Positions 786 through 25,963 are shown, counted from the stretch's first letter. The stretch: DNA of 64,000 nucleotides from Chloroflexota bacterium (GCA_015222205.1 JADFUW010000002.1:1303-65302), one strand, 5' to 3'. Notes: generated by a model not told the origin, from the sequence alone. Program-made: numbers and translations.

Positions 786-900
786 CTCTTTACATTATAC
801 CACATACCACTTATGCTACTGTCGGGGCGTCTAAGAGGGGTTTTGCCCCTCTTTTTTATATCTTCCCCTCTCCTTTGAAGGAGAGGGGAAGATATAATCT
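786..900. repeat. composite palindromic intergenic repeat, copy A
   Basis: Hairpin AAGAGGGG-TTTTG-CCCCTCTT (833-853) is followed by a T-run. Next comes a perfect 19-bp inverted repeat TATATCTTCCCCTCTCCTT / AAGGAGAGGGGAAGATATA (857-896). The left flank TTTACAT..TATACCACA.ACC and GGGGCGT.TA.GA are shared with copy B. Confidence 0.8.
794..802 (-). promoter_or_regulatory. extended -10 element (TGGTATAAT) for CDS 1-781
   Basis: The minus strand reads TGGTATAAT (TGnTATAAT) 12 nt before the ATG at 781, implying a very short leader. The motif TGTGGTATAA recurs upstream of CDS 4871-6058. Confidence 0.35.
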
Positions 901-948
901 CTATTTCTTATTTCTTTTAGCCGGAAATTCTAGTAGAATAAGCCTGAA

Positions 949-3537
949 ATGAGAGAAGGTTTAACCCCTATCCGTCAGCAATATCTCAGGATAAAGAGGA
1001 ATTATCACGAGGCTATTGTCTTCTTCCGCCTGGGGGATTTCTACGAGACCTTTGATAAGGATGCTGAGCTTACCTCTCGGGAGCTGGATATTGTGCTGAC
1101 GTCCCGGGAGATGGGTAAGGGGCATCGGGTGCCTATGGCTGGTATTCCCTATCATGCCCTGGATAACTATCTGGCGAGGCTTATTAGTAGAGGCTATAAG
1201 GTTGCTATCTGTGAGCAGGTGACCAGGCCCGGTGAGACGAAGGGACTGGTTGAGCGTGGTGTGGTTCGAGTGGTAACGCCAGGCACGGTAATTGAGCCGG
1301 CTCTTCTTGACGGTAACGCCAATAATTATCTGGTCAGCCTCGTTTTAGGTGATGATGCGGCTGGTATAGCCTATGTTGATATAACCACCAGCGAGTTTGC
1401 TGTTACTCAACTGCCCCGGGAGCGGGCTAACGCTGAACTGGAGCGGCTTAAACCATCGGAGATTATTACGGCGGAGAGTGCTGAACTACCTGATTTAGAA
1501 TTAAAGGCTCCGCTAACCCGGCTTGAGGATTACTGCTTTGAGCTAGAGACGGCCCGCCAAACAGTGCTGGAGCATTTTGGCGTGGCTACCCTTGATGGCT
1601 ATGGCTGTAGTAACCTGCCCCTGGCGATAAGTGCTGCTGGGGCAATCATTCACTATCTTCAGGAAACACAGAAAGGGGTTCTGGGACAGCTAACCCGGCT
1701 TTCTACCTACTCCACTGGTTCATTTATGGCGCTGGATATGCAGACCCAGAGAAACCTGGAGCTATTCCAATCAAGCCGTCTGGGCACTGCTGAGGGCTCA
1801 CTACTATCGGTTATTGACCTGACCAAGACGCCTATGGGAAGTCGGCTATTAAAGAAGTGGCTGGGGCAACCCATACTTGACATAACGGAACTGACCAGGA
1901 GACAGGAGGCTATTGGCTGGTTCTTTGATAATACCCTGGCTCGCAACCAGACGGTTTCCCTGTTTAGCGAGGTGGCTGACCTGGAGCGGTTGATAAACCG
2001 GGTGAGGGGTGATGTGGTTAGTCCGCGTGAGCTAATAAGCCTGAAGCGCAGCCTTGAGGTTATTCCCAAGCTCATAGAGGTAATTACGGCTGGTAAAAGC
2101 AGTAATAGTATTAGCTGGCTCAAGGATAAGCTTAAGCCTCGTCAGGATGTAGTTGACCTGATTACTGAGGCAATAGAGGAGACACCGTCATCAGCTCTGG
2201 GGGAGGGTGGTGTGGTGAGAAAGGGTTTTTCTGAGGAACTGGATAGCCTTTGTCTGGCGTCTAGGAATGCCAAGCATTATCTGGCTAATCTGGAGCGTCA
2301 GGAGCGAGACAAAACGGGAATTAAATCCTTAAAGATAGGCTTTAACAATGTTTTTGGCTACTATATTGAGGTATCCAAAGCTAATCTCGGTCAGGTGCCG
2401 GAGCATTATATCAGAAAGCAGACACTGGTAGGGGCTGAGCGCTTCTTCACCCCGGAGCTAAAGGAGTATGAATCACTGGTTTTGAATGCCCGTGACAGGA
2501 TTAGCGAGCTTGAGTCTGAGCTGTTTCATCGGGTATGTCGCCAGATAGCTACTGCTGGCGAGCGCATCCTAGCCGTTGCCAATGCCCTGGCGAGCCTAGA
2601 TGTCTTCTCCAGCCTGGCTGAGGTGGCGGTGCGTTATGACTACACTAGGCCCAAGCTAACCACGGATAGTGAAGTGGCTATCACTCAGGGACGCCACCCG
2701 GTAGTTGAAAGGAGCTTGACCTATAAGGGCTTTGTGCCCAATGATGCTCATCTTTCCAATGGTGATGCCCAGCTTATTATCCTCACCGGGCCCAATATGT
2801 CAGGCAAGTCAACCTACTTGAGGCAGGTGGCGTTAATCGTCCTTCTGGCACAGACAGGCAGCTTTGTCCCCGCTGATGCGGCAACTATTGGCCTGGTGGA
2901 CCGTATCTTTACCCGGATTGGTGCCGGGGAAGATATTGCCGCCGGTCAGTCTACCTTTATGGTGGAGATGGTGGAGACGGCCAATATCTTAAATAACGCT
3001 ACCCCTCGCTCACTGATTATCCTGGATGAGATTGGGCGGGGCACCAGTACCTACGATGGGCTGTCCATTGCCCGGGCAGTCTGTGAGTATATCCATAATG
3101 CCTCCAGACTGGGGGCGAAAACCCTCTTTGCCACTCACTATCATGAGCTGGTTGAGCTGGCTAGTTTCCTGCCCCGGGTGAAAAACTTTAATGTGGCGGT
3201 AACCGAAGAAGGGGGTAGGGTGGTCTTCTTGTACAAGATTGTGCCGGGCGGGGTTGATAGGAGCTATGGTATCCACGTAGCGCAGCTAGCGGGCTTACCC
3301 AAATCGGTGGTGCACCGGGCACACGAGGTACTGGAGGAATTGGAGGAGGCTAGCCGAGCTACAGGGGCTAAGCCCTTACCCAAGAGGCGCGGTAAGGAGG
3401 TAGCACGGCAGCTAACATTCTTCGGGCAACAATCACCGGTGGCTGAAGAGCTAGAAAAGCTGGACATTAATTCCTTAACACCTCTGGAGGCTCTCACCAA
3501 GCTCTACGAACTGCAACAGAAGGCTAAGGAGGGGTAG
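949..3537 (+). CDS. mutS: DNA mismatch repair protein MutS
   Basis: 862-aa ORF. N-terminal mismatch-binding motif (TPIRQQYLRIKRNY..FFRLGDFYETF), Walker A GPNMSGKST and STFMVEM..DEIGRGTSTYDG are all typical MutS signatures. Confidence 0.97.
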   Translation: MREGLTPIRQQYLRIKRNYHEAIVFFRLGDFYETFDKDAELTSRELDIVLTSREMGKGHRVPMAGIPYHALDNYLARLISRGYKVAICEQVTRPGETKGLVERGVVRVVTPGTVIEPALLDGNANNYLVSLVLGDDAAGIAYVDITTSEFAVTQLPRERANAELERLKPSEIITAESAELPDLELKAPLTRLEDYCFELETARQTVLEHFGVATLDGYGCSNLPLAISAAGAIIHYLQETQKGVLGQLTRLSTYSTGSFMALDMQTQRNLELFQSSRLGTAEGSLLSVIDLTKTPMGSRLLKKWLGQPILDITELTRRQEAIGWFFDNTLARNQTVSLFSEVADLERLINRVRGDVVSPRELISLKRSLEVIPKLIEVITAGKSSNSISWLKDKLKPRQDVVDLITEAIEETPSSALGEGGVVRKGFSEELDSLCLASRNAKHYLANLERQERDKTGIKSLKIGFNNVFGYYIEVSKANLGQVPEHYIRKQTLVGAERFFTPELKEYESLVLNARDRISELESELFHRVCRQIATAGERILAVANALASLDVFSSLAEVAVRYDYTRPKLTTDSEVAITQGRHPVVERSLTYKGFVPNDAHLSNGDAQLIILTGPNMSGKSTYLRQVALIVLLAQTGSFVPADAATIGLVDRIFTRIGAGEDIAAGQSTFMVEMVETANILNNATPRSLIILDEIGRGTSTYDGLSIARAVCEYIHNASRLGAKTLFATHYHELVELASFLPRVKNFNVAVTEEGGRVVFLYKIVPGGVDRSYGIHVAQLAGLPKSVVHRAHEVLEELEEASRATGAKPLPKRRGKEVARQLTFFGQQSPVAEELEKLDINSLTPLEALTKLYELQQKAKEG

Positions 3538-3629
3538 GGGCGGGTTATTGTGCCACTAGAATTCTAGATTCTATAAAAATACATCAGCTCAGGCTGGCTA
3601 TAGAAAGGCGCAAGAAAAGGAGGTAAGAG

Positions 3630-4199
3630 GTGTCCCAGTTCAGATCAAAAGAAGTGGAGAGGGAAGCAGTACGAATGACCGCAGTCATGATGGCATCGAG
3701 TGCTAGGACGGCTCCCAAGGCTAGAGGTCTTGATGCTATAGAAACAATGATTGTCGATGGTAGTGACCTCGAACTTCTGGTAAGTGCTATGGAGGATAAG
3801 GCGAAAGAGCAACCACCCTACCTTTCTTCAATCTTTGACAGGGATGCTCGCAATGTCAGAAACTCCAGTTGTGTATTGTTAATAGGGGTTGTGGGTAACC
3901 CCAAGAAGATTGAGGAATCGTTAGACTGCGGTGCCTGCGGCTACAAAACGTGTAAGGATTTACTCAATGTGAGGAAGCGTGAGGGAAAGGACTTTAGTGG
4001 CCCTATTTGCATATTCCAAGCACTTGACTTAGGTATTGCTCTAGGTTCAGCCGTCAAACTGGCTAGCGGACTCAACGTCGACAACCGCATGATGTACACG
4101 ATTGGGGCGGCGGCGAAGAAATTGCACCTCTTGGATTCTGACATCGTTATTGGTATCCCGCTATCCGTATCCGGTAAGAATATCTATTTCGATAGGTGA
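3630..4199 (+). CDS. DUF2148-like protein (uncharacterised ferredoxin-domain family, COG4739-like)
   Basis: 189 aa, GTG start preceded by AAAGGAGG. ARTAPKARG, CGACGYKTC and GIPLSVSGKNIYFDR match my recollection of the DUF2148 family consensus. Sits between two copies of the mutS 3' end. Confidence 0.7.
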   Translation: MSQFRSKEVEREAVRMTAVMMASSARTAPKARGLDAIETMIVDGSDLELLVSAMEDKAKEQPPYLSSIFDRDARNVRNSSCVLLIGVVGNPKKIEESLDCGACGYKTCKDLLNVRKREGKDFSGPICIFQALDLGIALGSAVKLASGLNVDNRMMYTIGAAAKKLHLLDSDIVIGIPLSVSGKNIYFDR

Positions 4200-4242
4200 T
4201 AGGGCGTTATCGTCCCTACCAGAGAGTCACGGCTCTTTCGTG

Positions 4243-4362
4243 GTCTTTGGGCAAAAATCACCAATATTAGACGAGCTGGAGAAACTTGACATAAACTCAC
4301 TGACGCCCCTTGAGGCCCTCACCAAGCTCTACGAGCTGCAGAAGAAGGCAAGGGAGGGGTAG
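4243..4362 (+). pseudogene. orphan second copy of the mutS 3' end (39 codons + stop)
   Basis: Encodes VFGQKSPILDELEKLDINSLTPLEALTKLYELQKKAREG*, against FFGQQSPVAEELEKLDINSLTPLEALTKLYELQQKAKEG* at the mutS C-terminus (3418-3537). The alignment is gapless and codon-for-codon. No mutS body lies upstream of it. Confidence 0.85.
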
Positions 4363-4375
4363 GGGGGGATTATCG

Positions 4376-4798
4376 GTGACTGGAAGGAGGTGGCTAATTT
4401 TGGAGACTGGGAAATATCGCCTAGTAAAGCGAATGAGGTTGGCAGCGCGGATAATTGGTTTTGGTATGGTGGGGTTTGGTGGAACGATGCTGGTTGGTGA
4501 GGCGGTGAGTGAATATCTTCGGGAAGGCTGGGCAGTAATCACCGAGGTAACCCCGACAGACCCAGGGGTTCTACTAGTTGTGATTGGAGCAGTTGCCCTG
4601 GCGGGCTGTATTCTGTCACGGTGGCGGGAGCGACTGGCTGGCATATTACTGGTTTCCGTTGCTGCTGCACTGGGTGCCCACATTGCTACCTATGCCGGCA
4701 GAAATCATGCCCTGGTGTGGGCTATGGTGGGTCTGCCGTTTCTGGTTTCCGGGTTGCTGTTCCTTAACGCCTGGCGGCTTTCAAAGGAACTAACTTAA
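4376..4798 (+). CDS. small hypothetical integral membrane protein
   Basis: The track ORF 4310-4798 overlaps the mutS remnant. The likely start is GTG 4376 (G-rich SD-like run just upstream) or ATG 4433. It has 3-4 hydrophobic helices (IIGFGMVGFGGTMLVG, VLLVVIGAVALAGCIL, ILLVSVAAALGAHI, WAMVGLPFLVSGLLFL). Confidence 0.55.
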   Translation: MTGRRWLILETGKYRLVKRMRLAARIIGFGMVGFGGTMLVGEAVSEYLREGWAVITEVTPTDPGVLLVVIGAVALAGCILSRWRERLAGILLVSVAAALGAHIATYAGRNHALVWAMVGLPFLVSGLLFLNAWRLSKELT

Positions 4799-4870
4799 AC
4801 AGAATACGCGGTATGCGAATTATAAGAGAAGGTGGAGGGGAGGGGTGAGGATGCTGAGCCGTGTGATTCG

Positions 4871-6058
4871 TCACAATGTTGGAGACTCGAAGGAAATATT
4901 CAGGTCCCCTATTTGAATACCAGATGTGTCGCCGATATACAGTGGTAAAGGCAAGACATCTTTATGCATATTATCATATTGTTCTAGAACTTTTACTTTC
5001 AGTTCCATAAGTTCTGGGGTAAATGTAATGGCGAATTTACTATTCCTGATTAACTCGGCCTTTGAAGATCGGTCTTCTCTTTTCTTTGTCGTGTCCTCTA
5101 ATGAACTCTTTGCATGGTAGAACTGGGACCTAACACGCATATCTTCAATTTTTGCTTTGGCTTTCGGTATTTCCTCTAGCTCTTGTAGCTCTTTACTGAG
5201 CTTCTCTATCTCAATAGAGTAAGAATCAATTTCCTCCAATAGCTCATTGTATTTGGATTCTAGTCTCTTAATAATCACTTGCATATCTGTTAAACATGAC
5301 CTAAGTAATTCTCTAGTGTCGGCTAGCGAAAAGAATAGATATTCCCTCCGCTCTGGATGCCCGAAACCGGTAAACACTGTGTCATTTATGTCATCGTCTA
5401 AAAACCAATTATAGTCCTTCTTCTGATAGCCATTTATCTCTATCGAGCGTATAAACAAGCGTAGTGATATGAGTTCTTCACGTTGATATCCAGCCCTGTC
5501 TTCTTCAGTAATTTTTGCTGCGTCTTTTAGAGCCTTATCTAACTCAGCGGAAATATTTCGAGGCGTGTACTTAATAGTATCATGCGTTTGTATGTTGAAA
5601 GCTAATTCTTGTCCTTCCTTCTGCAAGGGGATTACATACTTGCCTAATGCAGTCATTAGGCCATATTCATAGTAGACATTTGGGTTAGGGATATTTACCT
5701 TCCTCCCGTTTATTAGTTCCATAGTATCATCCAGTATTACAAGGCAAAATTGCGATTCTATTATTTTCCCACATATTTTTGTACAAAATATGTCCTGTCC
5801 ATAAGCTCTCTCTTTGATTGCGATTACAGGTTCAATACCGATTTTTGTAAGTTTTTCAATAATTAGAGCGAGTATAGTTTCTACTTCTTCCTCAGATGGG
5901 CAAGCAACAAAGCATGATTTTGAGGCGCCAAGAAACTTCCCGCAAGAATGGTCTTTGCGAACAAAACATTTAGGGATCTCTCTGAATTGAGTTGATTGTT
6001 GCATTTCCGGAAAGCGTAAAAACCCTCTATTATATCTATAAAATCTGTCCATACTCAT
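4871..6058 (-). CDS. hypothetical protein: N-terminal TIR-like / nucleoside 2-deoxyribosyltransferase-like Rossmannoid domain + C-terminal coiled coil
   Basis: 395-aa ORF, AT-rich. Residues ~48-165 (SCFVACPSEEE..KIGIEPVIAI..QFCLVILDD..NPNVYYEYGLMTALGKYVIPLQKEG) follow the strand/helix pattern and the N-x-x-x-E-x-G-x(4)-GK-x-V-x-L motif of TIR-like (Cap12-type) and N-deoxyribosyltransferase-like domains as I recall them. Residues ~255-330 are a heptad-rich K/E/L coiled coil. Confidence 0.45.
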   Translation of the reverse strand: MSMDRFYRYNRGFLRFPEMQQSTQFREIPKCFVRKDHSCGKFLGASKSCFVACPSEEEVETILALIIEKLTKIGIEPVIAIKERAYGQDIFCTKICGKIIESQFCLVILDDTMELINGRKVNIPNPNVYYEYGLMTALGKYVIPLQKEGQELAFNIQTHDTIKYTPRNISAELDKALKDAAKITEEDRAGYQREELISLRLFIRSIEINGYQKKDYNWFLDDDINDTVFTGFGHPERREYLFFSLADTRELLRSCLTDMQVIIKRLESKYNELLEEIDSYSIEIEKLSKELQELEEIPKAKAKIEDMRVRSQFYHAKSSLEDTTKKREDRSSKAELIRNSKFAITFTPELMELKVKVLEQYDNMHKDVLPLPLYIGDTSGIQIGDLNISFESPTL

Positions 6059-6104: not shown

Positions 6105-6235
6105 TGCCATTGTTTACATGCTTATACCACACACCTCACTCACCAAAGGGGTTAAAGGGGCGTTAGACCCTTAAAGAACAGCTTCCCCCTCTCCTTATCA
6201 AGGAGAGGGGGACTAAGGGGGTAAGGTTACAATGT
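6105..6235. repeat. composite palindromic intergenic repeat, copy B
   Basis: Perfect 13-bp inverted repeat TCCCCCTCTCCTT-ATC-AAGGAGAGGGGGA (6184-6212). Its tail CTAAGGGGGTAAGGTTACAAT resembles the tails of copies C and D. The left flank is shared with copy A. Confidence 0.8.
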
Positions 6236-6296: not shown

Positions 6297-7733
6297 ATGG
6301 AGCCTGCCAAGTTTTTTGAGAGACGAACCAAGATAGTTTGTACCATCGGTCCGGCGACTGCGTCGGTGGCTATGATTGAACGGCTGATTACGGCTGGTAT
6401 GAATGTTGCCAGGTTTAATTTATCTCATGGTACTGCTGGTGAGCACGCCCGTTATATCCGAATCGTAAGGAGGTTGAGTCGGCGTCTGGGGATACCGGTG
6501 GGGGTATTGATTGATTTGCCGGGGCCCAAATACCGAATTGGAAAATTGAAGGGTAGCCGGGCTATTTTGGAAAAGGGTGCCCCGGTAATACTTACCACAA
6601 GGGCAATAGAGGGTGATGCCAATTTAGTGCCGGTGAGCCTGCCCTATCTGGCGCAGGATGTGAAGGTAGAGGATACGATGCTTCTTGCTGACGGAGTGAT
6701 AGAGCTTAAGGTGCAGGCGATAGAGGGCGATGAGGTAAACTGCCGGGTAAAGGTTGGTGGTTTGCTTACTGAGGGTTGTGGGTTGGTGGTGCCTGGAATG
6801 CGTAGTTCTGTTCCTTTTATTACTGATACCCTGCGGCAGTATATTCATTTTGCTGTTGAGCAGCAACCTGATTACCTGGCGCTCTCATTTGTGGCTGCTG
6901 ATGAGGATATCACCAGTGTTAGAGCCATCCTGCAGGAGGCTGGTGTTGATATACCCATTATTGCCAAGATAGAGCGGCGGCAGGTGGTGGATACCTTTGA
7001 TAAGGTACTCTCGGTGAGTGATGGTGTTATGGTAGCGAGGGGAGACCTCGGTGTAGATATTCCCCTGGAGAAGGTACCGCTGGTACAGAAGGAGATTATC
7101 AAGAAGTGTAACTGGGTGGGTAAGCCGGTGATTACTGCTACTGAGATGCTGGAGTCAATGGTGAAATCAATCCGTCCCACGCGGGCTGAGGCTGCTGATG
7201 TAGCTAATGCTATATTTGACGGGAGTGATGCCATTATGCTTTCATCGGAAACCTCCGTGGGTAAACATCCGGTGCGAGCAGTGACCCTGATGTCCCGTAT
7301 TGCCCGGGAGGTGGAGAGAAAATTGCCCTATCAGCAAATGTTGACGGAAAGGGGCAGGTGGCTTGAGCATAAGACAGATGAGTTAATAAGCTATAATGCC
7401 TGCTACACAGCGTATAACCTGGGGGCGGTAGCCATAGTGGCCTTTACCCAGTCCGGCAGCACGGCGGGTCGGGTATCAAAATACCGCCCTAGAGTACCCA
7501 TCTTAGCCATAACTTCTAGTAATGTTGTATCGGGCCGGTTACTCCTGCGCTGGGGGGTGTATCCCTTCCGGGTAACTGGGTTATCGTCGGTGGATGAGCT
7601 ATTTGATGCGGGGGCCAAGCTTGTTAAAGAACTTGGGTTAGCTAGAGCGGGTGACCTGATAGTAATTACCGGCGGTGTTCCTATCGGCTTAATCGGGTCG
7701 ACCAATCTGCTGAAGGTGGAAGAGATTAAATAG
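6297..7733 (+). CDS. pyk: pyruvate kinase
   Basis: 478 aa. RRTKIVCTIGPA, NVARFNLSHG and MVARGDLGV..ATEMLESM are hallmark pyruvate kinase motifs. SD GGAGGG lies upstream. Confidence 0.96.
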   Translation: MEPAKFFERRTKIVCTIGPATASVAMIERLITAGMNVARFNLSHGTAGEHARYIRIVRRLSRRLGIPVGVLIDLPGPKYRIGKLKGSRAILEKGAPVILTTRAIEGDANLVPVSLPYLAQDVKVEDTMLLADGVIELKVQAIEGDEVNCRVKVGGLLTEGCGLVVPGMRSSVPFITDTLRQYIHFAVEQQPDYLALSFVAADEDITSVRAILQEAGVDIPIIAKIERRQVVDTFDKVLSVSDGVMVARGDLGVDIPLEKVPLVQKEIIKKCNWVGKPVITATEMLESMVKSIRPTRAEAADVANAIFDGSDAIMLSSETSVGKHPVRAVTLMSRIAREVERKLPYQQMLTERGRWLEHKTDELISYNACYTAYNLGAVAIVAFTQSGSTAGRVSKYRPRVPILAITSSNVVSGRLLLRWGVYPFRVTGLSSVDELFDAGAKLVKELGLARAGDLIVITGGVPIGLIGSTNLLKVEEIK

Positions 7734-7770
7734 CGACACTAGAGACTCGGTTTCTAGGCCTGGGTTGAGC

Positions 7771-8535
7771 CTATTCACCGTTTTTAACGACATAGTTTCT
7801 CAGCGTGCCTATCCCCTCTATCTTTATCTCTACGGTATCACCGGGGTACATGGGCCCGATGCCACTGGGGGTGCCGGTGGCGATAACATCACCGGGCAAG
7901 AGTGTCATGATGTGAGATATAAAGCTCACCAGTTCGGGGATGGGGAAGATGAGGTCGCTGGTAGTGCCTCGTTGCTTGAGTTCCCCGTTAAGATAGGCTT
8001 CCAGATTAGCATTACCGGGGTCAAGCTCGGTCTCAACGCAGGGACCAATGACAGAGAAGGTGTCAAAGCCCTTGGCCCGTGTCCACTGACCGTCCTTTTT
8101 CTGAAGGTCACGTGCCGTAACATCATTAAAGCAGGTGTAGCCCAGCACATAGTCCAGTGCCCTTTCTACAGGTACCCGGTATGCCCGGGTCTTTATCACG
8201 ACCCCCAGCTCTGCCTCATAGTCAACCCGCTCTGAAGAGCCGGGATAAACGATGTTATCCTCGGGGCCGATTACTGATGTGGACGGCTTCATAAAAAGCA
8301 GGGGTTCGGGGGGGATGGGTGACTTGAACTCTTTGGCATGGCTGTAGTAGTTAAGGCCCAGCGCCACTATTTTGGAGGGTGTGCACGGGGGGAGGAGTTT
8401 GACCTCGTTAAGATTATAATGACTATTAGAATGCTTGAGCTGACGGTAGGGGGTACCCGTAGCGCCCTGAATGACTTTACCATTTAATATTCCGTATTCG
8501 GCCTTTTTGCCGGTGGTAAAACATATAATTTTCAT
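7771..8535 (-). CDS. fumarylacetoacetate hydrolase (FAH) family protein
   Basis: 254 aa. DYEAELGVVI, GYTCFNDVTARD and PGDVIATGTPSGIG are typical of the FAH / 2-keto-4-pentenoate hydratase family. Confidence 0.88.
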   Translation of the reverse strand: MKIICFTTGKKAEYGILNGKVIQGATGTPYRQLKHSNSHYNLNEVKLLPPCTPSKIVALGLNYYSHAKEFKSPIPPEPLLFMKPSTSVIGPEDNIVYPGSSERVDYEAELGVVIKTRAYRVPVERALDYVLGYTCFNDVTARDLQKKDGQWTRAKGFDTFSVIGPCVETELDPGNANLEAYLNGELKQRGTTSDLIFPIPELVSFISHIMTLLPGDVIATGTPSGIGPMYPGDTVEIKIEGIGTLRNYVVKNGE

Positions 8536-16938: not shown

Positions 16939-17187
16939 AACTAGTGTAAATACCTCTTTACTATTGGATAAATTTGGCGTAGAATTTTAATACAGTAAAT
17001 TATGCTCTCGTTATAATGCTAAAATATTAAGCGTTATAATGTTATCATAGTTGTGGCTAGCTTGGCAAGGATGGGATTAGGTGTTGGTAGGATTTTGCCG
17101 GGTAGGGCCAGTAATATAATTAGCCTTCCTCTTGACAAAGAGGAAGTAGGGGGAAAAATAAAAAATCTTAAGTAAGGAGAGCATAAC

Positions 17188-18819
17188 GTGAAGCACGTTG
17201 ATTCTCTTAGTGGGCAAGAGTTGAGGGATATGTTTGTAGCGGCTACTCACTGGCTGGAGAAGAATGCTTCGGATATTGATGCTTTGAATGTTTTCCCGGT
17301 GCCGGATGGAGATACCGGGACTAATATGTTGCTTACTATGCGTTCCACCATTGAGGAAGCCTACCGGGCTCCTGACCACAGCACTGCGGCGGTGGCTGGA
17401 GCTATGGCCAAAGGGGCTCTGATGGGGGCTCGGGGTAATAGTGGAGTAATTCTGTCACAGATTTGGCATGGACTGGCGCAGGGTTTGGGGGGGAAGGAGT
17501 CATTTGCCGGTAAAGACTTGGCTGATGCCTTACTGATGGCATCGGTAGCGGCTTATAACGGGATAGATAATCCGGTAGAGGGGACTATTCTTACCGTGGC
17601 GAAAGAAGTAGCGTCGGCGGCTAAGGCTCAGGTTGATAGTAGTAATGATGACCTAATATCAATTATGGAGGCGGTAGTTAGTGCTGCCCGAGAGTCAGTG
17701 GCTAATACTCCCAATCTTCTTTCTGTATTGAAGGAAGCCGGGGTGGTGGATGCTGGGGGGCAGGGTCTATACACGATTTTGGAGGGTATCCTGCATTACC
17801 TTAGGGATGAGGTAGAGGAGTTTCAGTCGAGCAAGCCGGGAATAGTCATTGGCAATATGCCTCTAGTGAATAGGACTCCACAAATGATGGTTGCGGATGA
17901 AGTACCGTATGGATATTGTACTGAGTTTCTGATTAAGGGGCAGGGGCTTGACCCGGATAGGCTTAGGACCAGACTGAAGAGGCAGGGGGAGTCTCTAATT
18001 GTAGTTGGGGATAGCTCTGCCGTTAGGGTTCACATTCATACTTTAGACCCGGGTAATGCTGTTCATCTAGCTACTGCTTTAGGCACGGTACATCAGGTCA
18101 GTATTCGGAATATGGATGAACAGCACCAAGGTTTCCTGGAGATGCAGAAGGGCAAGGTGCTGGCGGCTGATATAGCTATTGTAGCTGTGGTCTCTGGGGA
18201 TGGGCTTAGTGATGTTTTTACTAGCCTGGGGGCGGTTGTTGTTCCTGGTGGTCGAACGATGAATCCGAGTACTAAAGATTTGCTCCAGACGGTAAATTCA
18301 CTGGCTTCAGATAAGGTTATTATTTTGCCCAATAACAAAAATGTAATCCCGGCGGCGAGGCAGGCCCGGTCTCTGACCCAAAAAGTCGTTAAGGTGATGG
18401 CTACGGTATCAATTCCGCAAGGGATAGCTGCCCTTTTAGCTTTTAACAGTGAAGCCGACCTGGAGACAAATGTTCAGGTAATGAAGAAGTCACAGGTAGC
18501 AGTAAAGTCTATTGCTGTTACCCGGGCGGCTCGCTTTTCCCGGATAGGTGGTTTGAGTATTAAGCGGAAGCAGCCTATTGGATTTCTGGACGGGGAGTTG
18601 GTTGTTGCCGGTGATGATATCGTTGATACTTTGGGTAAGGTGTTAGCCAAGGTGGATTTGGACGCTGCCGAGGTAGTTACTATTTACTACCGGGGTGACG
18701 CCGAGCGAACTGAGGTGGAACCGTTTATCATTAGTCTTCGTGAGCAGCATCCCGAATTGCAGATTGAGCTAGTTAGGGGTGGGCAACCTCACTATGACTA
18801 TATTGTTTCTGTAGAATAG
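17188..18819 (+). CDS. DAK2 domain-containing protein (YloV-like)
   Basis: 543 aa. The N-terminal DAK2 pattern (LNVFPVPDGDTGTNM..RGNSGVILSQ) and its position directly upstream of recG match Firmicutes-type yloV-recG synteny. Confidence 0.88.
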   Translation: MKHVDSLSGQELRDMFVAATHWLEKNASDIDALNVFPVPDGDTGTNMLLTMRSTIEEAYRAPDHSTAAVAGAMAKGALMGARGNSGVILSQIWHGLAQGLGGKESFAGKDLADALLMASVAAYNGIDNPVEGTILTVAKEVASAAKAQVDSSNDDLISIMEAVVSAARESVANTPNLLSVLKEAGVVDAGGQGLYTILEGILHYLRDEVEEFQSSKPGIVIGNMPLVNRTPQMMVADEVPYGYCTEFLIKGQGLDPDRLRTRLKRQGESLIVVGDSSAVRVHIHTLDPGNAVHLATALGTVHQVSIRNMDEQHQGFLEMQKGKVLAADIAIVAVVSGDGLSDVFTSLGAVVVPGGRTMNPSTKDLLQTVNSLASDKVIILPNNKNVIPAARQARSLTQKVVKVMATVSIPQGIAALLAFNSEADLETNVQVMKKSQVAVKSIAVTRAARFSRIGGLSIKRKQPIGFLDGELVVAGDDIVDTLGKVLAKVDLDAAEVVTIYYRGDAERTEVEPFIISLREQHPELQIELVRGGQPHYDYIVSVE

Positions 18820-18931
18820 CCCTGTCGATACAAACCTAGTAATCGGTGCTCATACTAACCCTCACGTTCTTTTTTATCTGTATTAGGGGGAGAGGGGATA
18901 GGTACTGGCAGAGACGAACGGAGGCAATATC

Positions 18932-21389
18932 TTGGCACTAAATGTTAAGCCTCTGCGCCGGATTCTTGAGCTTGAGCATAAGAAGGGTTACCCGGACTCA
19001 GCCGTAATTGGGGGTCTGGATAGATTCCTCCATCAGTGGGTAAGTCAAGCTATAGAGTCGATAACTAACCCTAAACTCTTAAGTCACTTTCATAAACTCA
19101 ACCTGGTTAACTCTAACTATGCCTCTTTAACCACAGAGCAGCGTCGGCAGTGGGCTGAGGATATGCTTGGCTTTTTGGGTGAGCTAGAACACCAGGGTGG
19201 AGAGAGCACCACAGCTAAATTGATGTCTCCAGCTAGCCCATCAGTGCCAGTACCAAGGAAGTCGAAAGCCACTCCTAGCCAGTCTGTAAACTTGCCCATT
19301 ACGGCTATCAAAGGTATCAGCCCCAACCTAGCTAATAAGTTTAGTAAGTTGGGGGTGAAGACGATTCGGGACTTGCTCTACTTCTTCCCCCACCGCCACC
19401 TTGACTATAGTCAGAGAAAGTATATCTCCCAGCTTGCTGAGGGCGAGGAGGAAACGATAATTGCCAATGTGTGGCAGGCTCAGGAGGTCAGGCTGGGGGG
19501 TCGGCGCAGTACCGAGGCTATTGTCGGTGACGAAACGGGTAATGTCAGGGTAGTATGGTTTAACAACCCTTATCTGGCTAAAAAATTGACCACTAATACA
19601 AGAGTAGTTGTCAGTGGCCGGGTTGGCTTGTTTAACGGCCGGCATGTATTCCAGTCTCCAGAGTGGGAGTTGGTCGGGGATGAGGACCTGATTCACACCG
19701 GGCGTTTGGTTCCCCTCTATCCTCTTACTCAAGGACTGCGCCCACGCCAGGTAAGAAAACTGATGAAAGGGGTTATTGACCAGTGGGCGTGGCAGGTGAC
19801 AGATTTCTTACCCCCAGAGGTGAAAAAACGGCAGAGCCTTCTGGAGCTATCTCAGGCGATATGCCAGGCTCACTATCCCGATGATGAAGCCCTTAAGACT
19901 CAAGCCAGAATTCGGCTGGCTTTTGATGAGCTGTTTCTTCTCCAGCTGGGTGTGCTCAGCAGGAAGCATGACTGGCAGTATAGTCAGCCGGGTAATCCGT
20001 TTAGTGTCCAGGGGATGCTTATGGATACCTTTCTAGAGTCCCTGCCCTTTGAGCTGACCCCGGCTCAGCAAAAGGTACTCGGGGAGCTACTGGCTGACCT
20101 GCAGAAGTCGCAGCCAATGTCCCGGTTACTACAGGGGGAGGTGGGCAGTGGTAAGACAGTAGTGGCTACGGCGTTACTGCTTATGGCGGTGGCTAATGGT
20201 TATCAGGGGGCCTTTATGGCGCCTACCGAAATTCTGGCAGAGCAGCACTTTACCACTATCTGTCAACTCCTGTCCCGACTAGGGCATAAAGATAGTGGGG
20301 AAGATTGTCTCCATAGTTATTCCGGGTTTCTGTCTCATCCGGTTACGGTGGCGCTACTTATTGGTGATATTAACCTCAAAAGTAAGCAGAAACTAAAGCA
20401 GCACATTTTAGATGGCGATATAGGTGTTATTATTGGAACTCACGCCCTCATTCAGAAAGGGGTAGAATTTCACAAATTGGGGCTGGTGGTGATAGATGAG
20501 CAACACCGGTTTGGTGTTACTCAGCGCTCAGCACTCCGGCAAAAGGGGTTTAATCCTCATGTACTGGTGATGACGGCAACACCTATCCCGCGTACCCTAG
20601 CCCTGACACTATACGGAGACCTTGACCTCTCGGTTATTGACCAGTTGCCGCCGGGGAGACAGGTGGTGAAGACAAAGTGGCTTAAACCAGGGCAGAGAAA
20701 TAGCGGCTATGCCTTTTTGCATCGTCAGGTGGCTCAAGGCCATCAGGCATTTATTATCTGCCCTCTGGTTGAGGAGTCAGAGGTGATTCAGGCCAGGGCA
20801 GCGGTTGCTGAATATGAGCGTTTATCTAGAGAAGTCTTTCCTAACTTGAGGTTAGGCTTGCTCCACGGACGCATGACGGCGGCGGATAAAGATAAGGTAA
20901 TGCGTCGGTTTCGCTCTGGCGAGCTGGATATTCTGGTTTCCACTCCAGTAGTTGAGGTGGGTATAGATGTGCCCAACGCTACGGTAATGATGGTGGAGAG
21001 CGCTGACCGTTTTGGTCTGTCGCAACTACATCAGTTTCGGGGCCGGGTGGGACGGGGCCCGGAGCAAAGCTACTGCATGCTGCTTGCCCAGAACCCATCC
21101 GAGGTGGGGTAGAGAGCGGCTTGACATAATAGAAAAGTTTCACGATGGCTTTCAACTGGCTGAGGAAGACCTGAAGCTGCGGGGTCCGGGTGAATTCTTT
21201 GGCACGAGGCAGAGTGGACTGCCCGACCTCAAGATGGCTAAGCTCTCTGATGTCACCCTGCTGGAACTGGCACGTAGTGAAGCGATAAAGGTCTTTGAGG
21301 TAGACCCCCGTTTAGAAAAGCCGGAGCATAAGCTTCTGGCTAAAGAGCTAGCCTGGGTCTGGACAGCCGAGGGTGGTGAGTGGAGCTAG
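18932..21389 (+). CDS. recG: ATP-dependent DNA helicase RecG, reading frame broken by an apparent 1-nt insertion in a G4 run (21106-21109)
   Basis: Track ORFs 18932-21112 (helicase motifs GEVGSGKT, DEQHRFG, QLHQFRGRVGRG) and 21012-21389 (ERLDIIEKFHDGFQLAEEDLKLRGPGEFFGTRQSG, the RecG C-terminus) are consecutive parts of one RecG. Deleting one G from GTGGGGT restores ...SEVGRERLDII.... Confidence 0.9.
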
Positions 21390-21456
21390 ATACCTCATGG
21401 GTCAAATCCTGACCGAGACAGGCAAGAGTGCAGATTATCCTCTCTTGCTAGCTTTG

Positions 21457-21465
21457 TGCTATAAT
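21457..21465 (+). promoter_or_regulatory. extended -10 element TGCTATAAT upstream of argS
   Basis: TGnTATAAT match ~35 nt before the argS start. No good -35 at proper spacing. Confidence 0.35.
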
Positions 21466-21497
21466 TTGGGCATACAGGAGGCTAAGGCGGGATATTA

Positions 21498-23159
21498 GTG
21501 ATTAAACAGAAGTTAGTAGAGCTGCTGACTCAGGCGGCAAGCGAGGCCCAACAGCAGGGCAGGCTGCCGTCAGTCGTTTTGCCTCAGGTTACAGTAGAGC
21601 ATCCCCAGAATCCAGAATACGGGGACTATGCCTCAAGCCTGCCCCTGAAATTAGCCCGGGCAACCGGTGTTAAGCCTCTGGCTATTGCCGAGAGTATAGC
21701 CGGACTTATCATACCCGGCCCGGAGATTGACACTATTACGGTAGCACCGCCCGGTTTTATCAATTTCACCCTTAAGAGCGATTGGTTAACCAGGCAGGTA
21801 GATGAGGCCCTTGAAGCTGGCGATTCTTATGGCAATATTGACCTGGGACAGGGCAGCCGGGTACAGATAGAGTTTGTTAGTGTTAATCCCACCGGGCCGC
21901 TTCATGTCGGGCATGGCCGCGGGGCTATTCTGGGTAGTACTTTAGCCAATATACTCACGGCTACTGGCTATAATGTGGAGAAGGAATACTATATTAACAA
22001 CGCTGGTAGCCAGATAACCGCCTTTTATCGTTCCCTATATGCCCGTTATCAGCAGTGTTTGGGTATTAGTGCCGAGGTACCTGCTGATGGCTACCTGGGT
22101 AGCTATATGGTTGACCTGGCTAAGGAGATTATCGCCGAGGAGGGGGACAGGTTTCTGGCTCTAGCCGAACCAGAAGCAGTGCTAAGCTTGGGTAAGCTTG
22201 GGCTGGACAAGATGATAGCGCAGATCAGGGCTGACCTTGAGCTATTAGGGGTAGTTTTTGATGTCTGGTTCAGTGAGCAAAGCCTTTACGATAATGGTCA
22301 GTATCAGAAGGCAATGTCGCTGCTGCGTGAGGGGAGCTATATTGGCGACAAGGAAGGGGCTACCTGGTTTATGTCTACTGCCCTGGGTGAGGATAAAGAT
22401 AATGTGGTGGTGCGGGGTGATGGTTCTCCCACCTACTTTGCGGCTGATATTGCCTATCACTACAATAAGTTTGTTGAGCGCCATTTTGATAGGGTGATTA
22501 ATATTTGGGGGGCTGACCACCAGGGGCATGTATCTCGCATGAAAGCCGTGGTCGGTGCCTTTGGTATTGCCCCAGAGCAGCTTCAGGTGATAATTTCTCA
22601 GCTGGTTACCCTGCGCCGCGGTGAGGAACTGGTTCGTGTTTCCAAACGCAGTGGTGACATCATTACCCTGCGTGAGGTAGTTGATGAGGTGGGGGCTGAT
22701 GCCTGCCGCTTTTTCTTTCTGTCCCGCTCGGCGGATAGTCAGATGGACTTTGACCTGGAGTTAGCTAAGAAGCAATCAGAGGACAATCCTGTTTACTATG
22801 TTCAGTATGCCCATGCCCGTATTGCTAGCATCCTTCGCCTGGCTAAAGAAAGGGGGATTGACTTTGGGGATGGAGATGTTTCTTTACTAACTACTGAGCC
22901 TGAGCTGAGCCTGATAAGGAAGATGCTACTTTTACCGGAGATAATTGAGGTAGTGGCTGGTACACTGGAACCCCATCATCTTGCCTATTATGCTCAGGAT
23001 TTGGCTACTATATTTCATAGCTTTTACACGCAGTGTCGTGTTGTTTCTCAAGATGACGAGATACTAACCAAAGCCCGTCTCAAACTGGTGGCGGCGGCCA
23101 AGCTGGTGCTGGCTAAGACCCTTTATCTTATGGGGATGACAGCCCCAGAGACAATGTGA
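21498..23159 (+). CDS. argS: arginine--tRNA ligase
   Basis: 553 aa. [14 protein letters not shown] (HIGH region), the class I aaRS layout and the C-terminal DALR-type anticodon-binding pattern are present. Confidence 0.96.
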
Positions 23160-23268
23160 GGGTATAGTAGCCGTCAGGTTTAAAGCCATTGCTTTAATTG
23201 GGGTAGGCTATTACTAATTAACTATCTGCCAGGGGTGAGTTGAACATGATTAAGGAGGAACTTTAGGG

Positions 23269-24243
23269 ATGAAAAACCGTGTTTTTTCTGGGGCTCGTCC
23301 TACCGGCCGGCAGCACTTGGGCAACTACCTGGGTGCCATACAGAATTATGTGAACCTTCAGGACGAGTATGACTGCATTTATTGTATTGTTGATATCCAT
23401 GCCCTGACCACGCTGGATGATACCAGTTCGTTGCAAAAGAATATCCATGAGATGATGCTCGACTGGCTAGCGGCTGGCCTTGACCCCAGAAAAAGCATCC
23501 TTTTTGTTCAGTCTCATGTGCCTGAGGTTACAGAACTGCATACCCTGCTTAGTATGGTTACCCCATTGAGCTGGCTGTTACGGGTACCTACCTTCAAAGA
23601 AAAGGTAAAGCTTCAACCTCAGAATGTAAACTATGGGTTGGTTGGCTATCCCGTTCTGATGACGGCTGACATTGTGCTTTATAAGGCTGGGGTTGTACCC
23701 GTTGGTGAAGACCAGTTACCCCATCTGGAGTTAGCCAGGGAGATTGCCCGCCGTTTCAATAACCTGTTTGGTGATACCTTTCCGGAGCCTGAAGCCAAGC
23801 TTACCACCTTTCCCTTGATACTGGGGCTGGATGGTAAGGAGAAGATGAGTAAGCAACTGGATAATGATATTGAATTAGCCCTCTCCGATGAGGAGACAGC
23901 AGCCCGGGTAATGGAGGCAGTTACTGACCCGGCGCGCCGCTATCGCAGTGACCCGGGGCATCCTAAGATATGTAATATTTTTCGGCTTCACGGATATTTT
24001 AATCCATTCCAGTCAGATAATTTAGCCGAGCAGTGTCGCTCAGCCGAGATTGGCTGCGTTGATTGCAAGAAGGCTCTGGCGCAGGAGATTAATTCTACGC
24101 TTAAATCCTTCCGGGAACGTCGGGCAAAACTGGCTGAGAAACCAGAGTATATCGTTAATGTTCTTGCTGACGGTGCTTCCCGCGCCCGAGTTATTGCCCG
24201 GGAAACCATAAAAGAGGTTAAGCAAAATATGAGGCTTCTCTAG
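23269..24243 (+). CDS. trpS: tryptophan--tRNA ligase
   Basis: 324 aa. SGARPTGRQHLGNYLGA (HIGH-like) and KMSKQ (KMSKS) motifs are present. Confidence 0.96.
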   Translation: MKNRVFSGARPTGRQHLGNYLGAIQNYVNLQDEYDCIYCIVDIHALTTLDDTSSLQKNIHEMMLDWLAAGLDPRKSILFVQSHVPEVTELHTLLSMVTPLSWLLRVPTFKEKVKLQPQNVNYGLVGYPVLMTADIVLYKAGVVPVGEDQLPHLELAREIARRFNNLFGDTFPEPEAKLTTFPLILGLDGKEKMSKQLDNDIELALSDEETAARVMEAVTDPARRYRSDPGHPKICNIFRLHGYFNPFQSDNLAEQCRSAEIGCVDCKKALAQEINSTLKSFRERRAKLAEKPEYIVNVLADGASRARVIARETIKEVKQNMRLL

Positions 24244-24265
24244 ATTTCAGCTACCTAGTACGATA

Positions 24266-24349
24266 TTTGGGGGCTTTGCCCCTCTTAAAATAAATCTCCC
24301 CCTTCCCCTTATTAAGGGGAAGGGGGATACAGGGGATAGGGTTAATAGA
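24266..24349. repeat. composite palindromic intergenic repeat, copy C
   Basis: Small hairpin GGGGC-TTT-GCCCC followed by TCTTAAAA. Then a perfect 15-bp inverted repeat TCCCCCTTCCCCTTA / TAAGGGGAAGGGGGA centred at 24312. Tail ACAGGGGATAGGGTTAAT. Lies between convergent trpS and the aminotransferase. Confidence 0.8.
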
Positions 24350-24362
24350 TTAGTCTTTCGGC

Positions 24363-25535
24363 CTAAGCTACTCGGTGTTTATCTAAAAATCGTTTTATTC
24401 GGGACAGTGCCTCTTCAATTTCAGCCATTGATGTAGCATAACAGGCACGGACATATCCGTCGCCCTGCTCTCCAAAGGCTGTGCCCGGGACCACGGCTAC
24501 CTTTTCCTCCATGATGAGCTTTTCCACAAAGTCCTCTGAGGTCATACCGGTGCTCTTTATTGACGGGAAGGCATAGAATGCTCCATGAGGTTCAAAGCAT
24601 GATAGACCAAGCTCGTTGAATCCCTTGACTATTACCCGGCGTCGGCGGTCATATTCAGCACGCATCTCCTCACCATCGGCATCGCCGGTTTTTAGTGCCT
24701 CTATGGCGGCTACCTGTCCCATTGTTGGTACGCACATAATAGTGTACTGGTGAATCTTGGTCATCGAGGCAATAATTTCTTTATTAGCTGCGGCGTAGCC
24801 AACACGCCACCCGGTCATGGCAAAATACTTGGAGAACCCGCCCAGGAAGATAGTGTTATCCTTCATCTCAGGCAGAGCCGCTATACAGGTGTGTTCCACG
24901 CCATAGACTAGCTTGGCGTAGATTTCATCAGAGATTATCAGTAGCCCATGATGCCGGGCCATCTCAGCTATCTCGGCCAGTTTATGTCTGGGCATTACGG
25001 CGCCGGTGGGGTTGGCGGGGTAGCCAATGAGAATGGCCTTAGTCTTGTCTGTGATTCGTTCTTCAATATCGGCGGCACTGAGTTCAAAGTTATTCTCCTC
25101 ATTGGTGGGTATCATAACTGGTGTGCCGCCAGCCATGATTATAGAGGGGACATAGGAGACATAGCATGGGTCGTGGGTAATGACCTCGTCGCCGGGGTCA
25201 AGGATTGCCCTCATGGCTAGGTCTAATGCTTCACTGACGCCCACTGTTATCAGAAGTTCGCCGTTAGGGTCATACTCTACATTATAATTATCATTCAAGT
25301 AGCGTGATAGCTCCTGACGCAGTTCGGGCATTCCTGAATTTGAGGTATAACTGGTTTTGCCCTTTTCTAGTGAGCGAATAGCTGCCTCAGTAAGATGCTG
25401 TGGGGTGGAGAAATCAGGCTCGCCCACCCCGAGTGAAATGGAGCCTTCCATGCCGGCTAACAGGTCAAAGAACCTTCGTATTCCTGAAGGCGATATCTGG
25501 TTTACTTTTTGTGAGGTAAGACTGCGAGTTTTCAT
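24363..25535 (-). CDS. pyridoxal-phosphate-dependent aminotransferase, class I/II (aspartate aminotransferase-like)
   Basis: 390 aa. GVGEPDF, NPTG and the SKYFAMTGWRVGY PLP-lysine motif are present. Confidence 0.9.
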   Translation of the reverse strand: MKTRSLTSQKVNQISPSGIRRFFDLLAGMEGSISLGVGEPDFSTPQHLTEAAIRSLEKGKTSYTSNSGMPELRQELSRYLNDNYNVEYDPNGELLITVGVSEALDLAMRAILDPGDEVITHDPCYVSYVPSIIMAGGTPVMIPTNEENNFELSAADIEERITDKTKAILIGYPANPTGAVMPRHKLAEIAEMARHHGLLIISDEIYAKLVYGVEHTCIAALPEMKDNTIFLGGFSKYFAMTGWRVGYAAANKEIIASMTKIHQYTIMCVPTMGQVAAIEALKTGDADGEEMRAEYDRRRRVIVKGFNELGLSCFEPHGAFYAFPSIKSTGMTSEDFVEKLIMEEKVAVVPGTAFGEQGDGYVRACYATSMAEIEEALSRIKRFLDKHRVA

Positions 25536-25609
25536 GTACTCCTCCTAGTGTTTATTGATATAAAGTTATACTCGTCATAGCCTGGGGTATTGCTGGCTGC
25601 TATCTGGGT

Positions 25610-25840
25610 TCAGTTATACCGTAGCTCAATTAGAGACCACTGCTTTTCAATTTCATTATAGCAAAGATTGAACAGCCTGTCATCCTTGGTTCTGACCTGA
25701 AAGCATCTTTTTTCCGGCTCCTGCCAGGTCTTTTCTACTTTATCAACTTCGTATTCTATGCCCTGCCATGCAAAAGACCTTGGCTCTTCGGCATAGGTAT
25801 ACCCTGAGTAGCAGCTAACTTTAAGATTATTCACCCCCAT
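25610..25840 (-). CDS. small hypothetical protein (76 aa)
   Basis: ORF with a plausible beta-rich sequence (PRSFAWQGIEYEVDKVEKTWQ..CFQVRTKDDRLFNLCY). No family confidently recognised. Coding status is uncertain. Confidence 0.4.
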   Translation of the reverse strand: MGVNNLKVSCYSGYTYAEEPRSFAWQGIEYEVDKVEKTWQEPEKRCFQVRTKDDRLFNLCYNEIEKQWSLIELRYN

Positions 25841-25963
25841 CCCCCTTTAGGGTTTTTATTGGGTAACTCTCCCCCTTGTGTTCCCCCTCCCTTGATAAGG
25901 GAGGGGGAAGTAGTTATATAAGGGAGGCGAAGCCTCCCTTCAACTCTCTTTAATAAAGAGTCT
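25841..25963. repeat. composite palindromic intergenic repeat, copy D (inverted orientation relative to A-C)
   Basis: 13-bp inverted repeat TTCCCCCTCCCTT-GAT-AAGGGAGGGGGAA (25881-25909). 8-bp hairpin AGGGAGGC-GAA-GCCTCCCT (25921-25939). 6-bp hairpin CTCTTT-AAT-AAAGAG (25946-25960). The reverse complement aligns with copy B, including the tail AAGGGGGAGAGTTACCCAAT. Confidence 0.8.

Follow-up and report, generated by a model that had tools for sequence, protein, structure and literature searches.

Four long palindromes in a 64,000-nt stretch of a Chloroflexota genome (GCA_015222205.1, JADFUW010000002.1:1303-65302; the whole stretch is referred to as the window) are probably copies of a high-copy intergenic repeat of Dehalococcoidia-type genomes, and the core of this repeat, judged from its sequence, could form an intrastrand triplex as described for BoxC/PIT/TM elements. 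The G-rich tail behind the hairpin reads as a mirror repeat of the purine arm, with A mirrored by A or T, and would provide the third strand of a potential class II purine-motif triplex. Triplex-forming repeats were recognized in bacteria 25 years ago, yet no function is known for them and the fold lacks support in vivo.

The palindromes, assigned to copies A to D, are the four longest perfect hairpins within the window. Their positions in the original prediction were confirmed in all four cases by sequence and hairpin scan:

856-897, plus strand: palindrome of copy A, 20-bp stem
6184-6212, plus strand: palindrome of copy B, 13-bp stem
24297-24327, plus strand: palindrome of copy C, 15-bp stem
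25881-25909, minus strand: palindrome of copy D, 13-bp stem

All four hairpins consist of a pyrimidine 5' arm (90-100%) and a purine 3' arm, with perfect stems of 13-20 bp and loops of 1-3 nt. A degenerate pattern matching all four palindromes gave 0 matches in 100 dinucleotide-preserving shuffles of the window. The earlier description of the copies was accurate, yet missed the third-strand nature of the tail and the published BoxC/PIT/TM class.

Mirror symmetry and co-variation of the putative third strand

A scan of 185,579 species genomes with the pattern CCCCTYYCCYT-N0-6-ARGGRRAGGGG yielded at least 120 loci. Among the matches listed, complementarity at the free pattern positions is perfect in 131 of 140, and almost every match is accompanied by a GGGGTGAGGT-like sequence 3' of the hairpin, by its complement 5', or by both. 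The flanks of 138 palindromes, from 120 genome loci among these matches and from the window, were scored as an antiparallel third strand, with G allowed opposite G and A or T opposite A. At a threshold of at least 85% compatible triplets, a potential third strand is situated beside the hairpin in 102 of the 138 palindromes, compared to about 2 of 138 for shuffled flanks. Within the window, 12 of 13 triplets are compatible in copies B and D (loops of 3 and 3 nt) and 12 of 15 in copy C; copy A has no third strand. Copies B and D fall within the ITxF limits (stem of 6-15 nt, at most one mismatch, loops of 1-6 nt), copy C is marginal, and copy A lies outside of them.

Across subfamilies the variant of the third strand follows the variant of the arm, with the purine arms written 3' to 5':

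Purine arm GGGGAGAGGAA, third strand GGGGTGAGGTT
Purine arm GGGGAGAGGGA, third strand GGGGTGAGGGT
Purine arm GGGGAGGGGAA, third strand GGGGTGGGGTT
Purine arm GGGGAAGGGGAA, third strand GGGGAT(A/G)GGGTT

For 53 full Dehalococcoidia-type copies the mirror (triplet) score is 0.918, compared to 0.653 if the tail is taken as a direct repeat and 0.234 if it is taken as a Watson-Crick partner of the arm. Swapping the tails of these copies between subfamilies lowers the score to 0.80 +/- 0.011, and none of 500 trials exceeded 0.833. The mirror is retained in a rare polarity-swapped copy (arm GGGGAGAGGG, tail GGGTGAGGGG). Mirror symmetry cannot be produced by inversion or duplication. The conserved T opposite A, as read from the consensus, fits the T.A:T triplet of the purine motif, and it speaks against a tail paired with the pyrimidine arm as well as against a C-rich strand folded in the pyrimidine motif. 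A purine-motif fold of the single G-rich strand accounts best for the three-way co-variation; neither an RNA hairpin nor a G-quadruplex predicts it. The compensatory arm changes described originally are confirmed, and they extend to the tail as well.

These changes also bear on the view that the palindromes are double-stranded operators for a dimeric DNA-binding protein, which we regard as extremely improbable. Perfect palindromes are indeed present in the promoter-containing spacers of copies A and B, but the changes between copies conserve pairing and not a readable sequence, the loop length varies from 1 to 3 nt, and the asymmetric third segment is left unexplained. A switch between the hairpin and a competing G-quadruplex, built from purine arm and tail, is very improbable as well. 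The four G-runs needed are present (GG, GGGGG, GGGGG, and GG), a G-quadruplex was proposed by Kaplan et al. for the E. coli repeats of this kind (PMC5100583), and archaeal repeats next to a C-tract can switch between triplex and G-quadruplex in vitro (PMC8044849). However, a quadruplex does not require that the A positions of the arm are mirrored by A or T in the tail, as they are; in the commonest subfamily, two of the four runs consist of GG alone, and the smaller left module of the repeat, described below, is short of G-runs.

In the triplex fold proposed here, the pyrimidine and purine arms of the G-rich strand would form a perfect hairpin, and the third G-rich segment, located 3-4 nt downstream, would fold back antiparallel onto the purine arm via G.G:C, A.A:T, and T.A:T triplets (class II purine motif). 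This core is preceded by a smaller, potential class I motif of opposite polarity (third strand, purine arm, pyrimidine arm). We presume that the fold is transient and occurs only when the G-rich strand is single-stranded, i.e., during replication, transcription, repair, or DNA entry, and that selection or a copying mechanism acts on it. Non-autonomous units may have spread from few master copies, and their main role may be that of structure-prone punctuation with a local fragility favouring gene insertion and deletion, while the left hairpin might at times terminate transcription. A more far-reaching version, in which the ~100-nt unit is a “double-triplex” single-stranded DNA element that is actively copied in Dehalococcoidia and their phages, with an enzyme recognizing the triplex and insertion sites that serve as slots for foreign low-GC genes entering these small genomes, is unlikely in our opinion. 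In that case, the three-way co-variation of both arms and the tail would provide the first in vivo (evolutionary) evidence of purine-motif DNA triplexes being formed and selected in cells.

Several points weigh against the triplex fold. The scan pattern pre-selected CCCCTYYCCYT arms, so that the sequence similarity across phyla exists partly by construction. Copy A is devoid of a third strand and the third strand of copy C is out of register, so that the fold is not essential for the persistence of a copy. The co-variation counts are not independent, because copies share descent; probably about 6-10 independent switches, subfamilies and phyla considered, underlie them. The fold is known here from sequence alone, and ViennaRNA cannot model triplexes. 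Copies show no orientation bias relative to the local GC skew (34 versus 31), which argues against a simple lagging-strand-template mechanism, and neither a transposase nor target-site duplications or terminal inverted repeats that would account for the spread were found. In case of E. coli, neither the duplex form nor in vivo dimethyl sulphate footprinting shows a triplex (PMC4666352); according to earlier work as cited there, no effect on promoters, termination, or replication was seen in vivo, and DNA polymerase is blocked in vitro.

The composite unit and its copies in the window

Composite repeats of about 80-110 nt enclose the palindromes (818-897, 6146-6232, 24270-24350, and, on the minus strand, 25852-25959). 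As single-stranded DNA these copies have fold energies of -19.6 to -30.4 kcal/mol (z of -3.3 to -8.8). Among 63 distinct full copies, the consensus of the left part is aaGGGGaGTcTAAGAGGGGC-gaa-GCCCCTCTT, followed by an AT spacer of about 11 nt, and that of the right part is TCCCCCTCyCCTT-tca-AAGGrGAGGGGGA-taa-AGGGGGTGAGGT-tgcTAAAtAAt. Four subfamilies are distinguished by their arm core (TCTCC, TTCCCC, TCCC, and TTCCC). The second loop, the spacer, and the tail are particular to each subfamily, so that the unit is inherited as one piece.

The small GC hairpin of the Dehalococcoidia copies carries a mirror segment on its 5' side (GGGG[A/T/C]GT, loop CTA, AGAGGGG). Its triplets are compatible to 81% in register versus 32-63% when slid by 1-4 nt, and a switch between A.A:T and G.G:C co-varies in all three columns (Fisher p = 6e-6, which is indicative only, since copies share descent). 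The ~100-nt unit thus looks like a class I-like motif and a class II motif placed back to back, with a left hairpin that is also terminator-like. This two-motif architecture is lineage-specific and was not found described in the literature searched. The conserved TAAAC and TTACCTAATAAAA tails were considered as promoters and dismissed, as they contain no convincing -35/-10 pair.

Other architectures made of the same building blocks were seen in L046 (~2190-2290), L064, L098, and L043, of cyanobacterial and Methylococcales origin, and in L203, a viral contig with 5 copies. In one of them a pyrimidine-type motif (ACCTCTCTCC, CCTCTCTCCT, AGGAGAGAGG) is directly followed by the class II motif; in another, the complement of the third strand (AACCTCACCCCC) is located 5' of the hairpin and replaces the 3' third strand.

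A dispersed repeat family with conserved structure had been predicted from the window, and an nhmmer profile built mainly from other genomes (20 copies from elsewhere and window copy D) indeed recovers all four copies, together with a weak match:

818-890, plus strand: copy A, E = 3e-16, model positions 9-83 only
6146-6232, plus strand: copy B, E = 9e-18
24270-24350, plus strand: copy C, E = 1.5e-19, alignment beginning at model position 28
25852-25959, minus strand: copy D, E = 1e-20, copy D itself being in the profile
60272-60322, plus strand: weak, decayed fifth copy, E = 9e-4

The modules of these copies are composed as follows:

824-853, plus strand: left module of copy A, GGGGCGT at 824-830, loop CTA, purine arm AGAGGGG at 834-840 (stem 833-840)
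841-853, plus strand: remainder of this module, loop TTTTG, then pyrimidine arm CCCCTCTT at 846-853
856-897, plus strand: right module of copy A, perfect pyrimidine/purine hairpin TTATATCTTCCCCTCTCCTT tg AAGGAGAGGGGAAGATATAA, 20 bp
6146-6172, plus strand: degenerate left module of copy B, GGGGTT at 6148-6153 mirroring AAGGGG at 6155-6160
6184-6228, plus strand: potential class II motif of copy B, pyrimidine arm TCCCCCTCTCCTT at 6184-6196, loop ATC, purine arm AAGGAGAGGGGGA at 6200-6212
6216-6228, plus strand: putative third strand of copy B, after loop CTA, AGGGGGTAAGGTT, 12 of 13 purine-motif triplets compatible
24270-24282, plus strand: 5'-truncated left module of copy C, GGGGC ttt GCCCC, then TCTT
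24297-24345, plus strand: potential class II motif of copy C, pyrimidine arm TCCCCCTTCCCCTTA at 24297-24311, loop T, purine arm TAAGGGGAAGGGGGA at 24313-24327
24331-24345, plus strand: putative third strand of copy C, after loop TAC, AGGGGATAGGGTTAA, 12 of 15 triplets, marginal
25852-25959, minus strand: full composite of copy D, GC hairpin AAGGGAGGC ttc GCCTCCCTT at 25940-25920, spacer ATATAACTAC, pyrimidine/purine hairpin at 25909-25881
25877-25865, minus strand: 3' parts of copy D, loop CAC, putative third strand AAGGGGGAGAGTT, then tail ACCCAATAAAAAC, 12 of 13 triplets compatible
60272-60322, plus strand: decayed copy, pyrimidine arm CCCCCTTCCCCTT kept, purine arm reduced to AAGGGG, then a T-run, fold energy -8.5 kcal/mol

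The left hairpin of copy A (833-853), together with the TTTTTAT behind it, was flagged by a terminator scan, and the module resembles a terminator because of this T-run. The module could likewise form a class I triplex (RH'-R1-Y1), with 6 of 7 mirror triplets compatible as read by eye. Beside the right module of copy A (-27.6 kcal/mol, z = -8.8) third-strand scores do not exceed 0.55 (3' side) and 0.50 (opposite strand); because no third strand follows its hairpin, copy A is truncated or derived. Pairing in the left module of copy B is left only in AAGGG/CCCTT (6155-6159 with 6168-6172). In case of copy C, the left module begins 27 nt past the trpS stop codon, which makes a terminator role plausible, and the third strand is out of register due to one extra C:G pair in the stem. 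Copy D has a fold energy of -30.4 kcal/mol (z = -6.1).

A GC hairpin in each copy, as originally assumed, is real in copies A (833-853) and D (25920-25940) and, 5'-truncated, in copy C (24270-24282), but degenerate in copy B (6155-6172). The common tail proposed for three copies was found in B, C, and D and is absent from A. Half-sites suggested upstream of recG (18886-18905) and def (60933-60950) are purine tracts without a profile match and are thus not supported as copies. A 9-bp pyrimidine/purine hairpin at 17125-17146 (CTTCCTCTT gaca AAGAGGAAG), upstream of the open reading frame (ORF) 17188-18819 and with a TTGACA -35-like hexamer within loop and stem, was not detected by the family profile.

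Distribution, gain and loss, and neighbouring genes

Hosts of the matches listed comprise Dehalococcoidia, Anaerolineae, Nostocales, Bacteroidota, Patescibacteria, Proteobacteria, and others. The window belongs to a Dehalococcoidia-type genome: its genes share ~76% nucleotide identity with contigs of metagenome-assembled genomes, and its TrpS is up to 89% identical to metagenome-contig proteins in a partial match and 85% identical over the full length. Four loci labelled “delta proteobacterium” or “Bathyarchaeia” (L087, L039, L062, and L041) carry Dehalococcoidia-type units, and L087 is syntenic with the window at ~76% identity; probably the taxonomic labels or the binning of these loci are wrong. 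No Rfam family was obtained at gathering thresholds for the elements of the window and of three element-rich loci.

IMG/VR contigs are also rich in the pattern, with at least 47 near-full Dehalococcoidia-type units. Contig L303 contains two units (7665-7973) and ORFs matching phage portal, scaffold, and major head families, whereas the E. coli motif is reported to occur off phages and plasmids (PMC4666352). Contigs L257, L309, L301, and L256 share an L303-like ORF layout and carry Dehalococcoidia-type composite units.

Considering 51 copies of the window and the genome loci listed, all but 2 are located between crude ORF calls, in all four gene-orientation classes (tandem co-oriented 16, tandem anti-oriented 9, upstream gene divergent 8, downstream gene convergent 6). 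Hundreds of copies occur across relatives, and the spacers holding them are divergent, tandem, and convergent, with one inside an operon, so that the elements are not merely terminators at the 3' ends of convergent genes. It is decidedly unlikely that they act at the RNA level as Rho-independent terminators or as mRNA-protecting, REP-like 3' stem-loops with an incidental G-rich tail. Copies C and D do come after the 3' ends of trpS and ORF 26118-26870, the upstream gene is co-oriented for 26 of 43 copies, all stems would be very stable as RNA, and the left hairpin is a GC-rich stem followed by a T/A-rich run, flagged by the terminator scan in copy A. On the other hand, the genes on either side of copies A and B start divergently, the upstream gene runs opposite to the copy in 17 of 43 cases, and one copy is inserted between gatC and gatA, of which the stop and start codons overlap in relatives. 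Furthermore, a T-run is missing behind the long hairpin of copies B, C, and D, RNA pairing leaves the mirror co-variation of the tail unexplained, and E. coli PIT elements are without terminator activity according to work cited in PMC4666352.

Filled and empty sites were observed at three orthologous positions. The trpS-aspC spacer is element-free and 10-72 nt long in nine relatives; one or two units occupy it in the window, L087, and at least four metagenome loci (L123, L156, L165, L167), with extra small ORFs besides the units in L087 and probably in L165; in L130 and L146 a unit is situated just past trpS in a spacer of ~1 kb. In L131 a clean ~100-nt unit is inserted between gatC and gatA, which overlap in GTGA in L143 and have no gap in L130, L087, and L141. 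The unit of L149 lies directly against the start codon of an Lrp-like gene, in place of the AGGAG of this gene. Neither a target-site duplication nor a terminal inverted repeat was found at these three sites, although diverged flanks could hide short duplications. At the sites of copies C and D, L087 carries a copy as well. Across genomes the element copies are 87-91% identical, including non-orthologous ones, compared to ~76% for the flanking genes. Two further candidate sites were dismissed: the gatC-gatA junction of the window (ACTCACCCC) is coding and start-codon sequence and not the footprint of a lost element, and L103 is no empty counterpart of the window at ~31.3 kb, as the neighbouring gene differs.

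Possible, if doubtful, is the explanation that the repeat is a mobile non-autonomous element, comparable to miniature inverted-repeat transposable elements or REPs, the hairpins and G-rich flanks of which are recognized by a RAYT or an IS200/IS605 TnpA-type enzyme. The co-variation would then reflect the needs of the enzyme, and this explanation overlaps with the triplex element without excluding it. The filled and empty sites, the units on phage contigs, the higher identity of non-orthologous copies than of flanking genes, and subfamilies with co-inherited non-structural features, which imply copying from master copies, are in good agreement with it. Against it stand the lack of a transposase gene adjoining any copy examined, the missing duplications and terminal inverted repeats at the compared sites, and a core that is near-identical from E. 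coli to cyanobacteria to Dehalococcoidia, unlike the lineage-specific pairs of REP and RAYT. In addition, the E. coli elements were not found on mobile elements (PMC4666352).

Low-GC ORFs adjoin elements (within 150 nt) in 18 of 34 cases versus 74 of 307 for ORFs of normal GC content (odds ratio 3.5, p = 8e-4). These proportions of 53% and 24% bear out the earlier statement that copies border AT-rich, variable ORFs. Each of the low-GC ORFs 1-781, 4871-6058, and 26118-26870 of the window has a copy next to it, and the slot by gatA contains unrelated ORFs in the window and in L087. No transposase was detected among the AT-rich ORFs of the window, for which Pfam and PADLOC searches gave nothing or weak TIR and coiled-coil matches. 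ORF 4871-6058 (minus strand, 395 aa, 38% GC) has sub-threshold matches to a CAP12/Pycsar TIR domain and to the coiled-coil defence proteins JetC and LmuB, and may be a defence-type orphan gene.

The bordering of low-GC, variable ORFs and the different filling of the slot by gatA could also suggest an integron-like attC site or another recombinase cassette boundary for the insertion of AT-rich ORFs. This is the least probable of the alternatives considered: the stems are perfect, without extrahelical bases or bulges, no GTTRRRY/RYYYAAC boxes occur in the consensus or, by eye, in the window tails, which read GGTTACAAT and GTTACCC instead of GTTRRRY, orientations are mixed without one-directional arrays, and copies occur without an adjacent cassette and without an integrase seen beside them.

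The extended -10-like motif TGTGGTATAA occurs at 795-804 and 6122-6131 (minus strand), at a distance of 24-25 nt to the left of copies A and B, and faces the divergent low-GC ORFs 1-781 and 4871-6058. Its presence at both copies had been noted correctly; it is not part of the family consensus, as it occurs only 4 times in the 1.5 Mb of related sequence examined, elsewhere not near elements. A larger unit common to copies A and B was considered and rejected, as the flanks do not align beyond the element and TGTGGTATAA.

Further repeats were observed in the window. A segment of ~140 nt from the end of mutS, which covers the stop codon and ~20 nt past it, recurs 825 nt downstream with ~78% identity (3419-3548 and 4244-4373), and the two repeats bracket a DUF2148 ferredoxin-domain gene (3630-4199). 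This resembles the trace of an insertion that hit a core gene at its 3' terminus and restored the gene end. The 3' end of gatA is duplicated as a 48-nt direct repeat, 92% identical (26896-26943 and 27089-27136, 193 nt apart), that brackets a terminator-like hairpin (~27027-27060); the low-GC ORF 26118-26870 lies just beyond, with a different ORF at this place in L087. A 91-nt direct repeat, 75% identical (42293-42383 and 42851-42941, 558 nt apart), contains GGCTGTGGTAAAACGCAT, which may encode a P-loop (GxxGxGKT), suggestive of two adjacent paralogous genes. A tmRNA gene with the tag peptide GEPEFALAA is located at 30431-30784 (minus strand); ssrA of Dehalococcoides is a known integration target of genomic islands.

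Relation to known systems

BoxC is one of the enterobacterial small palindromic repeat families, and the REP/BIME-like nature proposed at first for the window elements holds broadly in this sense. Both REP/BIME and the window elements are short intergenic palindromes of high copy number that occur in mosaics and in both orientations and are linked to genome plasticity, and some REPs are terminators or mRNA stabilizers. REPs are imperfect palindromes with a conserved 5' tetranucleotide, each lineage having its specific RAYT. In contrast, the window elements have perfect stems, a mirror third segment, and a core that recurs across phyla, and the GTAG-like foot of REPs is not visible in the 63-copy consensus. 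In annotation, such hairpins should not be equated by default with terminators, attC sites, or REP elements.

The G-rich repeats with a C-tract of the Methanomicrobiaceae (PMC8044849) are likewise intergenic, and they form a GC hairpin with an antiparallel G-rich third strand in vitro, in the polarity of the left module. They differ in being archaeal, single modules of other sequence that were described chiefly as potential G-quadruplexes.

The closest relatives are the E. coli elements. BoxC, PIT, and TM elements are the same, and TM_ECO is given as CCCTCNCCC-N3-6-GGGNGAGGG-N3-GGGNGAGGG, a class II purine motif (Holder 2015, PMC4666352; PIT elements were described by Hoyne & Maher 2000, 2002, as cited there). 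Their single strand forms a stable triplex, shown in vitro only; the elements are intergenic, without strand bias, and unstable, with carrier loci that are more rearranged among strains, and cyanobacteria abound in G/C-rich triplex motifs (PMC4666352). The copy in the E. coli hrpB-mrcB spacer was read directly and is without RefSeq annotation. The term Dehalococcoidia does not occur in the main text of the 2015 survey (PMC4666352), and a literature search returned no paper on such elements in this group.

Identity of the window elements with the BoxC/PIT/TM kind is well supported. Both have a pyrimidine arm, a short loop, a purine arm, a 3-nt loop, and a G-rich mirror segment, with nearly the same core (CCCTCTCC / GGAGAGGG / GGGTGAGG), and both are multi-copy, intergenic, without strand bias, at times arranged in inverted pairs, and found where gene content varies locally. 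The strict TM_ECO pattern gave 0 matches in the window and 5 in the other loci examined (L021, L059, L093 twice, and L109); thus the window copies are relatives and not TM_ECO proper. They differ by arms of 13-15 nt ending in TT/AA, by at least four co-varying subfamilies, by a ~100-nt unit with a second hairpin of opposite polarity and an AT spacer, and by copies on a phage contig and within an operon. Due to arms and third strand that change together, the opposite-polarity second motif, gain and loss at orthologous sites, and phage copies, this lineage is informative, and such data make it testable whether the fold is seen by evolution, how the elements spread, and whether they serve as insertion slots for new genes.

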